From assembly GCA_041640595.1 (NCBI GenBank), contig JBEPZY010000003.1:316242-380241 (forward strand): 64,000 nucleotides of DNA. Direction: 5' to 3'. The notes beneath the pieces are model-generated. The model had not been told where the DNA came from, ran no database searches, and saw nothing but the letters and a program-made list of their open reading frames with translations. This DNA is from Gemmatales bacterium. Its GTDB lineage: Bacteria > Planctomycetota > Planctomycetia > Gemmatales > HRBIN36. Both the position numbers and the translations under genes were made by a program. This document shows, piece by piece, positions 39,640-46,820 of the stretch (its first letter is position 1; each line of letters starts with the position of its first letter).

Positions 39640-40722
39640 ATGGCGGAGAAAGTGGTGATCATTGGATCGGGGCCGGCGGGATGGACAGCGGCAATCTACG
39701 CCGCCCGGGCTAACCTGAAGCCGCTGGTTTTTGAAGGAGCGGTGCACGAGGCGAACCGGCTCAAAGGAACGTTGCCGCTGGGGCAGTTGAACCTGACGAC
39801 GGAGGTGGAAAATTTCCCCGCCTGGCCACACGTCGAAACCGAGGTGTTGCAGGCTTTTTCACGCAGTGCCCTGCCGCCTGAGCGGTACGAAAACCTGCGT
39901 GGTTTTTACGAGGGCAAGTCCGCTCATCGCGGTAAACGAGCAGTCTTCGGGCCGGAGTTGATGGAATACATGCGGCAACAGGCGGTCAATTTCGGGGCGC
40001 GGATCATTACCGACGACATCGTGGCGGTGGATTTCCGCCGGCATCCGTTTGTTTTGACCAGTGGCGAAGGGCAGACCATCGAAGCGCTGGCGGTGATCGT
40101 GGCTACGGGAGCGCGAGCCAACTATCTCGGCTTGCCCTCGGAGGAGCGCTTCAAGAACAACGGTGTTTCCGCCTGCGCAGTTTGCGATGGTGCTTTGCCA
40201 CGGTTTCGCAATCGGCCTCTGGTCGTCGTGGGCGGCGGTGATTCTGCTGTAGAGGAAAGCACCTATTTGACCAAATTCGCCAGTGTCGTTTACCTGGTGC
40301 ATCGCCGCGATCAGTTGCGGGCCAGCAAGATCATGCAGGAACGGCTCTTCAAGAACCCGAAAATCGTGGTCAAGTGGAACCGTGTCGTCGAGGAGATTCT
40401 CGGCACCGACGAACAAGGCGTAACTGGCGTGCGTTTGAAAAGCACGGTGGACGACACCCGTGAGGTGCTGGAAGTCAGCGGCGTGTTCCTGGCAATTGGT
40501 CATACGCCCAACACCGACTTTTTGCGTGGTCAGCTGGAGCTGGATGAAAAGGGGTACATCGTCCTGACCCGACCGCACGCGACTTATACCAGCGTCGAAG
40601 GCGTGTTTGCCGCGGGCGATGTTGCGGATCCCCACTACCGTCAAGCGGTCACCGCTGCCGGCACCGGTTGCATGGCTGCCCTCGACGCCGAGCGCTGGCT
40701 CGCCAGCAAAGGTTGGGTATGA
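39640..40722 (+). CDS. trxB: Thioredoxin reductase
   Basis: [30 protein letters not shown]; insertion after TTEVENFP. Confidence 0.95.
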
Positions 40723-42242: not shown

Positions 42243-43868
42243 CAAGAGCGGCGGGCATGAGTAAGAGCGGCGGGCGTCAGCCCGCCGTGGTTCGGACATA
42301 CGATCGCTGCGCCGTGAGGAGCGGATGTTATTCAGCAACGAGCGAACACACAATCAGGAGCGGCGGGCGTCAGCCCGCCGTGACTCGGTAAACGCAATTG
42401 CAGGAACGCCTCCGGAAAATCGGGGAGACTGCCGGCAGTGTGCTCACAAACCTGGTCCAGTCTCGGTAGCGGACACACGGGGGCTGACGCATTACCCTGG
42501 ATTGGGAAACAACTTTATGCATACGGAGGTGCAGTCTCGGTACCGGACCCACGGGGGGCTGACGCCCCCCGCTCTTGTGTTGGTGTGCGGACGTCTGCCG
42601 ATGAAAAAAAGATTTTTGCGATGCACGAACGCATATTACCAGGAGCGGCGGGCGTCAGCCCGCCGTGGTTTCGGGAACCGTGTTTGCAACGGGGATCGTC
42701 TGTCGGAGGGTGATTGCGTTTCTCGCGCATGACCGACACCAGGCGACCGATGGGGAACAAGGGAAGCATAGTGGGGGGTTATTACGTTTCCCGCGCATGT
42801 CCGACACTCGAACCACGGCTGGCTTACGCCAGCCGCTCCTGTTCGGATGTGCGGAGGCGTTTGCACCGTAAGGCTCGTTTTCCGCCGGTTCGTTTCGCCT
42901 CGCGCGATGGCTAGCCACGGGGGGCTGACGCCCTCGCTCTTAATTCCCATGTGCCGAGGCGTTTGCACAGTAACGCTTGTGTTCCGCCGGTTCGTTCTGC
43001 CTCGCACGATGACGAACCCACCGGGGCTCGGTAAACGCAATTGCAGGAACGCTTCCGGAGAATCGGGGAGACTGCCGGCAGTGTGCTCACAAACGCCGGT
43101 GCAGTCTCGGTACCGGACCCACGGGGGGCTGACGCCCCCCGCTCTTGATTGGTGCACGACCGTTCGCCGGTGGAAAAACGCCTTTTGCGATGCACGAACG
43201 CACATTACCAGGAGCGGCGGGCGTCAGCCCGCCGTGGTTCGGAAACCGCGTTTGCAACGGCGACCGTGTATCGCGGGGTGATTGCGTTTCTCGCGCATGA
43301 CCGACACCAGGCGACCGATGGGGAACAAGGGAAGCATAGTGGGGGGGGTGATTACATTTCCCGCGCATGTCCGACACTCGAACCACGGCTGGCTTACGCC
43401 AGCCGCTCCTGTTCGGATGTGCAGAGGCGTTTGCACCGTAAGGCTCGTTTTCCGCCGGTTCGTTTACTTGCCACGGGGGGCTGACGCCCCCGCTCTTGAT
43501 TCGGATATACGGAGGCGTTTGCACCGTAAGGCTCGTTTTCCGCCGGTTCGTTTGCTTGCCACGGGGGGCTGACGCCCCCCGCTCTTGATTCCGATATGCC
43601 GATGCGTTTGCACAGAAACGCTTGTGTTCCGCAGGTTCGTTCCGCCTCGCGCGATGGCTAACCACGGGGGCTGACACCCCCCGCTCTTGATTCCGATGTG
43701 CCGATGCGGTTGCACAGTAACGCTTGTGTTCCGCCGATTCGTTTACTTGCCACGGCTGGCTTACACCAGCCGCTCCTGTTCGGATGTGCCGATGCGTTTG
43801 CACAGAAACGCTTCTGTGCCGCGAGATCGTTCGCTTGCCACGGGGGGCTGACGCCCCCCGCTCTTGCT
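42243..43868. repeat. Very large REP mosaic cluster (~1.6 kb)
   Basis: More than 15 hairpin copies; ~42640-42895 repeated at ~43208-43464; ~89 bp sub-units at 43468-43868. Confidence 0.93.
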
Positions 43869-43880
43869 TGTCGTTCGGTT

Positions 43881-44201
43881 TTAGCTGTCGGCGTGGTTGT
43901 GTTTAGTAATCCAGAGGCGCACGGCGCGAGTGCGCTGGTTGATCTGACCGATGACGAGAGGTCGGCCGGTTTGCGACGGTACCACGATCAGCGCCCAATC
44001 ACCGTCCAGCGTGGCGTCCTGAGGATGAAACAACGATTCGCCGCGTGCTGCCCGTTCGGCCATGACCGCCACTTTGTCCGGCGTTCCCGGAAGCGCTGCC
44101 GTAGGTTGCTGGGGCAGCCGACCGAGCTGTCCGACGGTTGAACGTTTCCGTCGCTTGCGGGGACGCGCAGTGGGCCTTTCCGGGCGACATTGTTTGTGCA
44201 T
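43881..44201 (-). CDS. Small hypothetical protein with PTxAxPGxxxKVxVxxxR..LFHPxD motif (planctomycete/phage-associated type)
   Basis: PTAALPGTPDKVAVMAERAARGESLFHPQD; GAGG RBS. Confidence 0.7.
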   Translation of the reverse strand: MHKQCRPERPTARPRKRRKRSTVGQLGRLPQQPTAALPGTPDKVAVMAERAARGESLFHPQDATLDGDWALIVVPSQTGRPLVIGQINQRTRAVRLWITKHNHADS

Positions 44202-44357: not shown

Positions 44358-44555
44358 CTACGCCGGATTGCGTGGTAAAGTGTTCTGCTCGATCCGCTCC
44401 AGAGCGTGGCGCAAACCGTACAAGCCCAGGGCGGTTGCCGCAGCCAGGATCGCCTTTTCGACTTCGGGCGAGACCAGGGGCACGACATGGTTGAAGGCGA
44501 CGAAAGCCGCCAGTAGCGCTGCGATGTAGGTTTTGTAGCCATTGAGCATGGACAT
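44358..44555 (-). CDS. Holin-like two-TM peptide, in frame with the upstream gene
   Basis: MSMLNGYKTYIAALLAAFVAF..AATALGLYGLRHAL; GGGAG RBS 7 nt upstream. Confidence 0.6.
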   Translation of the reverse strand: MSMLNGYKTYIAALLAAFVAFNHVVPLVSPEVEKAILAAATALGLYGLRHALERIEQNTLPRNPA

Positions 44556-45653
44556 GGGCTTGCTCCCTTGCGACTGGCCAGGATGTCCGGACTGGGCAGC
44601 CCGCTTCTGCCCGAGCCAGACCAGAGCCAGTGCGGCCAAAGCGAGATAGACCCAGGCGGGTAGTCTGTTCCAGGCGGAAGGAACCGGCTGGTTCTGTAAC
44701 CAGGCGGCCAGTGCTGCGGGGCCGTCGTAGCGGTAACAGATGCGGGCCTCACTGGTGCCGTCTGGTCCGGCCGGTGGTTGCACGACAATGGCCAATCCGC
44801 TGGCAGCAAAATTGGCATCCTGGTTCAGTTTCAACCGCGGCACGATCCAGTGGTCGGAGGGATAACTTTGCACCCGGTACTGCCCACGCCAGGCCGCCAG
44901 TTCCGGTGCACTGGCGAGATCGTTCAGGATTTTCCGGCGTTGTTCCAGATCGCGACTGATGATGGTCAGATGGGGCAGTTGGGAATCGTCCGGCACAGTT
45001 CGTCCCGATGAGTTATCGCCGGAAGCCGACTGGCCAGAAAGCAACGCTTCGGCTTCTGCGCGGCTGATCTCGCGGCCACGCCAGAGAAACCGCTCGGCAC
45101 CAGCAGGACGCCCCTGACGTTCCTGCAAACGCACCAGGTCGAGCCCGAAATTGAGCAGGTCACTCACCGCCGCGGCATTTTTACCGCTGGCGTCGTCTGC
45201 ATTCGCGTTCCTCTCGGGTTTGTCAGGTTCGACCGATGTGCCTGTCTGTTCCGCGTTCAGAACCACGGTTATTTCCTCACCTGCACGAAAAGTGACATCC
45301 CGTTGATACTGGCGACCATCGGACCAGCGAGCTGTGATCCGGTACTGGTAAGTGCCACCGATTGGTAAGGGCGGTGTCTGCAAATAGCGGGTTCTGCCAC
45401 TCTGCTGAACACGCACGCCCTCGATTTCAATTTCAGCATTTTCCGGATGAACCACCAGTGTCAGTCGGCTGACAGCGAAATTTGCTGCTTGGGGATGGTG
45501 CTGGTCGGTAACAAAAGGAGGCGGGATGAGAGGTGCGGCCTTCCAGACCGCAGGCGGTTCGTCAGCCCCGACCGGGCATCCGCCCGTCAGTCAAGTGGGT
45601 GCTGCCGAAATATAAGCCCAGCAACTGCTCAAGCAGAAGATGGCCAGGTGCAT
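44358..45653 (-). CDS. Secreted TIGR03000-type domain protein with in-frame TGA at codon 21 (candidate selenoprotein)
   Basis: GAGGAGG RBS and ATG at 45653; MHLAIFCLSSCWAYISAAPT-TGA(45591-45593)-LTGGCP continues in frame into the 45455 ORF; PENAEIEIEG..TPPL..YQYRITARW domain; TM segment. Confidence 0.72.
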
Positions 45654-45667
45654 GGCAATGCCTCCTC

Positions 45668-46312
45668 TCAAGGCCGTGCGGGCGGAGGAGCCGGAGCCAG
45701 CAGGATCATCGCCCAGCCTTCGCCTAATCCGGTGAACGTGCGACGAAACTCGCTTTCATTCATCCACTCCACGCTGCCGGGAAAGTTGCTGTCGAGCACG
45801 GCAAACCAGCGCTCATCGGCGTGCAGCAAATTGACCATGTGGGCAATGCGTCGCCCCTGATAACGCCCCGCCGGCGAGTAACAGTAAGTTATGCAGGGCA
45901 TGCGTCCAGTTTTGCAGGCCAGTTTCAGTAGTGTAATTTCGTTCCCTTGATAATGGAGATAATCAGGCGGAGGCACACCCCGTTCCCGACACAACCGCTG
46001 GATCATTTCGTCCACTTTTTCCGGCCAGCCACCGCCGGGATGCTGCCGCATCCAGTCGCGGAAATCGCGCAGGACTTCGACATTTTGCCAGTCGGCGGCC
46101 TGGGCCAGCGAAGTGAAAACGCACAGTCCGGCACCGTCACGCCCCACCGCGTTTTTCAGATGCCGCTCCACCGGAAAATCCAGCTGCACGGGTTTGCCAT
46201 CCGGCGTGCGCAGACCCCCGATGGTTGCCTGCCAGGACGCATCGGCGGTCTGGCTCACCGTTACCAGCCAACCGCTCAGTACCAGCAGCGAGATCATTCG
46301 CCCGTTCGGCAT
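45668..46312 (-). CDS. Secreted putative papain-like (C39-type) cysteine peptidase
   Basis: Signal peptide; GLCVFTSL (Cys), IAHMVNL (His), VLDSN (Asp); GGAGG RBS. Confidence 0.65.
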   Translation of the reverse strand: MPNGRMISLLVLSGWLVTVSQTADASWQATIGGLRTPDGKPVQLDFPVERHLKNAVGRDGAGLCVFTSLAQAADWQNVEVLRDFRDWMRQHPGGGWPEKVDEMIQRLCRERGVPPPDYLHYQGNEITLLKLACKTGRMPCITYCYSPAGRYQGRRIAHMVNLLHADERWFAVLDSNFPGSVEWMNESEFRRTFTGLGEGWAMILLAPAPPPARP

Positions 46313-46340: not shown

Positions 46341-46820
46341 TTAAGCGGCTGAGTTTTGCCAGCGTCGCCGCGCTACCCACCTCCACAAAAGCGCCAGTGC
46401 CCCGACGATTCCGGCACCTTCGAGCCAACCGCGCCAGCGACCAGCGGTGTAAGCGAGATGACTGGCACGCTGGACTACCCTCAGTTCGGATTCGACCTGT
46501 TGCGGCAACTGGCGCAACGCTTCGGCCAACGACCGCAAACTCCCAGCCAGTTCCCGCCAGACTTCCGGACTGGCGGGCGAAAACGGATTCGTCTGCGGGT
46601 GAGTGGTCGCTTCGGTCGAGCCGGACGGTGAACTTGCTGGCCCGGAGTGAGAGGCAACCTGCCCGGCGTGGGGAGCGGTGAGCGGACCGGCGGGCGACGC
46701 TTCTGTTCCGGTCGGCCCTGTATCCGACGCCAGTGCTGGCTGTCCGCATCCCAACTCCCCGCACACCGGGCCTGTACCCACCAGGAGCAACACGCCACAA
46801 GCTAACCAGCAACGGGACAT
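46341..46820 (-). CDS. Hypothetical protein with signal peptide, coiled coil and C-terminal TM anchor
   Basis: GGAGG RBS; hydrophobic N-terminus; GAGIVGALALLWRW near the C-terminus. Confidence 0.65.
   Translation of the reverse strand: MSRCWLACGVLLLVGTGPVCGELGCGQPALASDTGPTGTEASPAGPLTAPHAGQVASHSGPASSPSGSTEATTHPQTNPFSPASPEVWRELAGSLRSLAEALRQLPQQVESELRVVQRASHLAYTAGRWRGWLEGAGIVGALALLWRWVARRRWQNSAA

Follow-up and report, generated by a model that had tools for sequence, protein, structure and literature searches.

A gene on the minus strand of the window, the 64,000-nucleotide stretch of Gemmatales DNA analysed here, contains an in-frame TGA at codon 21 that we predict is read as selenocysteine (Sec), with a probability of roughly 0.85. 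The TGA is conserved, follows a strong translation start and precedes a hairpin of the type found in the order, and the host has Sec machinery; together these point to a selenoprotein gene. The original prediction, Sec at this UGA in an exported protein, is supported by the tests of host machinery, conservation, Cys homologues and SECIS. The product is probably an undescribed, genus-restricted selenoprotein, with standard recoding and an unusual architecture and origin. In what follows, G000 is the genome carrying the window, and G001-G003 are other genomes of the same genus with the gene. The features of the locus, in window coordinates, are:

46341..46820, minus strand: first gene of the cassette, a small membrane protein, counterpart (by position and eye) of the prophage gene before the peptidase
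45668..46312, minus strand: upstream gene of the same cassette, an exported papain/C39-like cysteine peptidase with invariant Cys64, His158 and Asp174 (Z 9-10)
45661..45667, minus strand: Shine-Dalgarno sequence GAGGAGG, read from the sequence, adjoining the stop of the upstream gene
44358..45653, minus strand: full coding sequence, 431 aa if codon 21 is Sec, from the open reading frame and orthologues
45594..45653, minus strand: 20-residue uncharged leader, a probable signal peptide, with no positive n-region and modest hydrophobicity
45591..45593, minus strand: in-frame TGA, predicted Sec21, in P-T-U-L-x-x-x-C, from orthologues and spanning contigs
45576..45578, minus strand: Cys26, partner in U-x4-C, kept in 4/5 orthologues
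45551..45586, minus strand: SECIS-like hairpin, lower stem 45586-45580/45557-45551, upper stem 45577-45574/45568-45565, loop GGUCG 45573-45569
45249..45476, minus strand: TIGR03000-like beta-sandwich, about aa 60-135 (Z 8.5, rmsd 2.5, 75 residues aligned to 6hif_Y)
44679..44990, minus strand: thioredoxin-fold domain without CxxC, aa 222-325 (Z 8.5, rmsd 2.9, 89 residues aligned to 7bzk_B; many Trx/PDI domains tied)
44592..44657, minus strand: transmembrane anchor from the structure model, about aa 333-354, then basic residues
44382..44555, minus strand: fused small two-helix membrane protein of GYKTY type, a separate gene in G001/G002 and prophages

The frame opens at ATG 45653, runs through 20 codons without a charged residue to the TGA (45593-45591), where the motif U-L-T-G-G-C is present, and continues through 410 open codons to a TAG (44360-44358). 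GAGGAGG (45667-45661, minus strand) directly follows the TGA stop of the upstream peptidase gene, and translational coupling of the two genes is likely. The strong ribosome-binding site, ATG, 20-residue leader, TGA and continuing frame of the original prediction were all found as claimed. Leaders of the TGA forms are uncharged, 20-22 residues long and contain A-x-A; their hydrophobicity is modest (maximum 11-residue Kyte-Doolittle value 1.9, and 0.9 in G001/G002). A hexamer coding score was uninformative for codons 1-66.

The full-length gene was found in 4 of 61 genomes (G000-G003), at 45-53% identity. Each copy has a single TGA in the same P-T-stop-L context, and its ATG, 20-22 codons earlier, has a good Shine-Dalgarno sequence. 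With a metagenome locus (L051, 87% identity) as the fifth form, the TGA is in frame in 5/5 non-identical orthologues, which represent about three independent lineages of one genus; another locus, L050, is 100% identical to the candidate and was left out of the count. Among 267 genomes of the order, TGA at the Sec-equivalent site is confined to this genus. Neighbouring true stops switch among the five forms (TGA in two and TAA in three for the peptidase, TAA in four and TAG in one for the downstream gene). The linker from the TGA to the first domain, 44 or 40 codons, is in frame and stop-free; the chance of no stop in a shuffled linker is 0.18-0.36 each. Four further database proteins share a 100/100 clade with the TGA forms and are all called without an N-terminus, and we infer that P0003, P0004, P0005 and P0010 also carry a TGA at the site. 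The predicted recoding would also correct the annotation of the TGA clade, in which every database call seen is without the export signal. No additional TGA orthologue appeared in the scan of genome contigs, no relative at E<=1e-30 in 400 further genomes of the phylum (few candidates scored per genome), and none among GenBank phages or in viral sequences scanned with either the TGA-clade alignment or P0010.

All of the Sec genes that the original prediction named (selA, selB, selC, selD) are present in the host: G000 encodes selA (568 bits), selB (387 bits), a selD with its own in-frame TGA and tRNA-Sec(UCA), together with RF2. The presence of selB, a Sec-type selD and tRNA-Sec extends to G001-G003, selA having been examined in G000. 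Reassignment of UGA was rejected: TGA is the stop of 1009 of 2270 confident genes, and the host has RF2.

A de novo scan of G000 gave 173 internal-TGA candidates, about a dozen of which, with classic motifs, were picked by eye; from their appearance we take these to be Bcp, Rdx, TlpA, ArsC-like, deiodinase-like, DsbD-like and other proteins. In several of the dozen a G-U-loop hairpin follows 15-38 nt after the TGA; some lack a hairpin. Besides the candidate, in-frame TGA genes of G000 with redox-type motifs lie at C1:+211390, C1:-1156757, C1:-727031, C1:-726611, C2:+320003, C2:-6353, C3:+463126, C3:-188085, C3:-649976, C4:-310820, C8:+50854 and C12:+11714; several of these have export signals, and the Rdx-like gene sits just upstream of selD. 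No FdhA-type selenoprotein was seen in G000, whose three molybdopterin-family matches have no internal stop. Elsewhere, L096 (G061:C12:96452-96545), a 95-nt tRNA with a GCA anticodon, scores 54.8 bits on the tRNA-Sec model, above the cut-off, and may be a selC-like tRNA-Cys; G007 has a second match to that model (L095) that resembles it.

The predicted hairpin 3' of the UGA exists as originally described, GCCC-GGUCG-GGGC over a lower stem GGCGG/CCGCC, with its G-led loop 17 nt past the UGA; but the 74-nt fold is no stabler than shuffles (z -0.18), and other folds compete, being equal or better in some windows of G000, G003 and L051. By itself the upper hairpin contributes -5.3 to -7.6 kcal/mol. 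Its value is in its position, loop sequence and conservation, not its stability. The G000 hairpin (loop 5, stem 4, GG first, spacing 17, -11.0 to -15.5 kcal/mol including the lower stem) lies within the bSECIS consensus given in section 5 of PMC13188914 (loop 3-9 nt, stem 4-16 bp, G in the first two loop positions, spacing 16-37 nt, MFE <= -7.5). In each of the five TGA forms a hairpin with a GGUC loop follows the TGA by 17-21 nt, and GGUC is made in two codon phases, at +17 (G000, G003, L051) and +21 (G001, G002). One compensatory pair, U-A to C-G, separates the G001 and G002 hairpins, and a strain variant turns a G-U into an A-U in the lower stem. A hairpin model fixed after the candidate was seen (R-G-U-Y loop 15-24 nt downstream, stem of at least 4 pairs) finds a hairpin in 5/5 TGA forms and 30/30 genes of a small family described below, in 5/2270 true stops and in 52/11009 Cys codons; synonymous recoding of the same peptides yields one in 1.6-5.6%. 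Rfam gave no match in 38-52 kb of the window.

The model hairpin is not specific to UGA, since it also stands at +21 in 5/18 sense forms, all from one Trp/Cys phage clade. In these phage genes, which have TGG or TGT at the Sec-equivalent site, a strong GUY-loop hairpin lies exactly at +21 (-8.6 to -12.2 kcal/mol); the loci are L101:4741-5601 (G061), L100:6853-7866 and L099:1091-1951 (G190), L106 and L109. An A-U to G-C swap occurs among these hairpins, and their compensatory changes alter amino acids. G061 and G190 have selB, and the tRNA-Sec of G061 reads UGA. The +21 hairpins of the sense forms may be left over from a Sec ancestor, may represent a pre-adaptation, or may result from quasi-palindrome correction. 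In an AU test, joining this clade with the TGA clade gave p-AU 0.126, by which a joint clade is neither rejected nor shown (19 of 37 rows used).

A scan of G000 for genes with a leader, a TGA and a Cys led to a second type of gene with the same motif:

G000:C4:325221-325505 (= L158:1722-2006), plus strand: small gene encoding one helix, with its TGA in P-T-TGA-L-G-G-A-C and a hairpin with an AGUU loop at +21

This gene, which follows an ECF sigma-factor-like gene (label by eye), represents a small family, itself predicted, with matches in 96 of 267 Gemmatales genomes, all but one of the matches listed having TGA; NCBIfam has no match for it. Like the candidate, its members have a hydrophobic segment and then T-U-L-x-x-x-C (family pattern T-U-[ML]-[SG]-G-[AS]-C-x-P), with T(-1) and C(+5) in 30/30 loci read, and a hairpin with an R-G-U-Y core at +17 to +22. 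Unlike the candidate, they are single-helix proteins of 60-95 aa without a folded domain; a recent DNA copy is not shown, and the codons differ. The five TGA forms score 6.5-23.3 bits on the small-family motif versus -8.7 to 4.6 on the motif of their own sense homologues, and 21 sense forms score at most 1.3 bits on the former. In G003 the seven residues flanking U are identical to those of one small-family member. The candidate ranks 12th of 86606 on this motif in G000, so the motif alone proves little in that genome; five other high-scoring TGA contexts checked there looked non-coding and were set aside. The motif match supports Sec by an independent route.

The shared motif suggests a graft, common ancestry or convergence, and G001/G002 also resemble the start of the G190 phage gene in nucleotides. 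It is possible, if on the doubtful side, that T-U-L-x-G-x-C and the SECIS overlapping it form a portable selenium tag, grafted from the small family onto a prophage-derived envelope protein or ancestral to both. If ancestral, the phage Trp/Cys genes with the +21 hairpin would be Sec-to-Trp and Sec-to-Cys escapes, a direction called rare in bacteria in section 10 of PMC13188914.

In full-length homologues, the residue aligned with U21 is the first Cys of Q-C-x4-C or the Trp of Q-W-x4-C, a motif preceded by a short leader. The 18 unique full-length sense forms with DNA (15 viral, 3 prophage) have Cys in 12 cases and Trp in 6, and some homologues have neither (Ala in G008; also P0017). No TGA was found at the Sec-equivalent site in those of 52 viral loci with a parsable start. 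The comparison at codon 21 thus supports the original prediction through Cys, but Trp was among the residues named there as speaking against it. The Trp forms argue against an absolute requirement for thiol or selenol, which, judged from sequence, the wider family does not need at position 21. Two motif claims also stood in part. U does align with the Cys of Q-C-x4-C, as expected if it replaced the gene's own first Cys, but the motif is closer to the T-U-[ML]-x-G-x-C of the small family. U-x4-C is present in four of the five TGA forms, but the partner Cys is not invariant, G001 having L-G-S-S-G there; its loss suggests that Sec itself, not the Sec-Cys pair, is what selection keeps.

Among the alternatives to Sec, the one that survives best is that a near-cognate tRNA (Trp or Cys) reads UGA21, producing little full-length protein, and that the stop is kept as an expression throttle. 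Besides the Trp of sense homologues, it can draw on TGG and TGT each being one change from TGA, on an unusually conserved stop context (11/11 nucleotides round the TGA kept in four genomes, one change in L051), and on UGA-CT being the rarest context after true TGA stops (25/1009). We consider it improbable, given a host with complete Sec machinery whose only tRNA-Trp is tRNA-Trp(CCA), the order's SECIS-type hairpin in every TGA form, and a motif that matches a family nearly all TGA with invariant T(-1) and C(+5).

It is quite improbable that codons 1-20 are instead a leader peptide with a real stop and that the TIGR03000 protein restarts downstream. The neutral linker at residues 22-63 (dN/dS 0.9-1.1, the internal linker likewise about 1) would suit a restart, as would database calls that begin downstream, P0002 being called from Met at residue 23, and a TTG in G003, 12 codons on, with a duplex of -5.0 kcal/mol. 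However, no downstream start is common to the orthologues, and in G000 and G001 the first lies inside the beta-sandwich without a Shine-Dalgarno sequence (in G000 a GTG 46 codons past the TGA). At ATG 45653 the anti-Shine-Dalgarno duplex is worth -12.0 kcal/mol, whereas the three in-frame starts found within 100 codons past the TGA reach +0.4, -1.8 and -2.6. This bears out the claim that the TIGR03000 frame has no start of its own backed by a ribosome-binding site. A restarted product would also be without the export signal present in sense homologues, and the frame is kept across the stop in all five TGA forms. A prfB-type +1 frameshift, considered from the sequence round the stop, was rejected because the downstream domains continue the frame of the leader and the other two frames run into stops.

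Most comparisons of the folded domains give dN/dS of 0.06-0.12, indicating purifying selection, and the G001/G002 leader gives 0.11; values of 0.82 for the G000/L051 leader and 1.76 for the G001/G002 beta-sandwich both rest on very few changes. On these values the gene is under selection, and it needs readthrough to retain the leader. Contigs of four runs from four studies span the TGA codon, with no difference there among the differences listed, which speaks against an assembly error; in run X20 all 11 differences of the spanning contig were listed, and all lie outside the TGA codon. Runs matching the locus are mostly hot-spring metagenomes. It is very improbable that the TGA is a nonsense mutation passed down in a prophage remnant undergoing decay, or an error of assembly. 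The cassette is prophage-related, and the contigs of the RNA run show neither strand nor transcription. But the TGA persists in the contigs of four studies and in five sequences whose identity falls as low as 45%, downstream dN/dS is about 0.1, with G000 and G003 close to saturation at synonymous sites, and no other stop or frameshift occurs in the N-terminal 345 codons.

If UGA21 is read as Sec, SelB bound to the GGUC-loop hairpin would deliver the Sec-tRNA at the codon; without selenium, RF2 would terminate there and leave only a 20-residue peptide, making expression selenium-gated. The uncharged leader would export the chain, with cleavage probably at A-x-A, placing Sec 1-4 residues from the mature N-terminus. 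The predicted product is membrane-anchored and periplasm-facing, with a U-x4-C tip on a disordered tether of about 40 residues, then the beta-sandwich, the CxxC-less thioredoxin fold and the C-terminal anchor. The structure model has pLDDT 68.5 and pTM 0.36, with disorder at residues 17-55. No Cys follows strand 1 of the thioredoxin fold, and Sec lies 200 residues away. Given Sec, the odds are about even that the tip serves as a mobile redox group (selenenylsulfide/selenol), standing in for the active site that the thioredoxin fold lacks and carrying out thiol chemistry on proteins of the envelope; the substrate would perhaps be the co-translated cysteine peptidase. The main alternative role for the tip would be soft-metal binding.

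The assignment to TIGR03000 (NCBIfam plancto_dom_1) holds as clear sequence homology at aa 67-132, but the score (41.7 bits, E 8e-11) is just below the curated cut-off of 43.1; orthologues score 33.8-41.2, and a homologue, P0090, exceeds the cut-off. TIGR03000 was the only NCBIfam match for the candidate, and neither Pfam nor PHROGs gave any. The fused GYKTY two-helix membrane protein, which we presume to be holin-like, has no library match.

The predicted recoding resembles that of E. coli fdhF-type genes, in which UGA is followed 17-22 nt downstream by a hairpin with a 4-5 nt loop starting G-G-U (GGUC after 18 nt in fdhF) in a host with selA/B/C/D. The protein differs: its Sec would sit behind an export signal, on a disordered tether at the N-terminus, whereas fdhF-type Sec is in a folded catalytic domain. 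Thioredoxin-fold UxxC/CxxU selenoproteins have Sec in the CxxC position, while that of the candidate is outside the fold, and its U-x4-C spacing contrasts with UxxC or CxxU. TIGR03000 planctomycete proteins share the beta-sandwich, to which the candidate adds the CxxC-less thioredoxin fold and anchors.

Neither TIGR03000 nor a T-U-L-x4-C family appears in the 119-family Table 1 of PMC13188914, although its supplements or BSepDB could list it, and no Pfam or NCBIfam family model among those 119 matches the candidate (CDD-, PANTHER-defined and model-less rows aside). That table includes TsoA (LULAxC, NF045695) and TsoB (UxxxxU, NF045694). Compared by table entry, TsoA shares the L after U but has U-x3-C, and TsoB has the same x4 spacing; neither model, NF045695 or NF045694, matches the candidate. 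The string 'Planctomyce' is absent from the main texts of PMC13326102 and PMC12013277, and literature searches yielded nothing on TIGR03000, Gemmatales selenocysteine or the candidate's family. Against the 119-family table, a protein with Sec on a tether before a thioredoxin fold lacking cysteine, encoded by a relative of prophage late-operon genes, would represent a new architecture. Sec, Cys and Trp at one site, with and without the hairpin, would form a small natural series in which to study the gain and loss of Sec, and whether the SECIS comes first.

The prophage cassette consists of a small membrane gene, a cysteine peptidase, a candidate homologue and a small GYKT/GYRT membrane gene. 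Its candidate homologue (G061, G190 and the IMG/VR loci L105-L125, L139 and L152) has the same domain order and gene neighbours as the candidate, but has a sense codon and Gln at -1, where the candidate has TGA and Thr, and forms a separate branch. The last cassette gene is separate in prophages and fused in G000/G003. In G061 and G190 the cassette lies in a prophage late operon, between the major tail gene and a tape-measure-like gene; in G000 it is among ordinary host genes, with no phage structural gene seen beside it. By sequence relationship, then, the cassette is related to prophage late-operon genes, kept in this genus as a stand-alone selected locus; a lysis role is plausible. PHROGs gave no match for the cassette genes. 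PeiR, P210 CD lyase, C39-like and phytochelatin-synthase-like proteins are equally good fold matches for the peptidase. Elsewhere among Gemmatales and phages (L084-L090, P0105, L154), the CxxC-less thioredoxin-like domain seen in the candidate occurs fused to the cysteine peptidase, which suggests that both domains work together.

Downstream, a 106-aa gene (43881-44201, minus strand) follows the cassette directly in all four genus genomes and L051, with no Pfam, NCBIfam or PHROGs match. Beyond it, between two genes, lies an imperfect-repeat array of inverted-repeat character (42325-43860), possibly a REP-like element; similar repeats flank the small gene in L158. A thioredoxin reductase-like gene (labelled by eye; 39640-40722, plus strand) lies 3.6 kb from the cassette on the opposite strand, and is also near it in L051.
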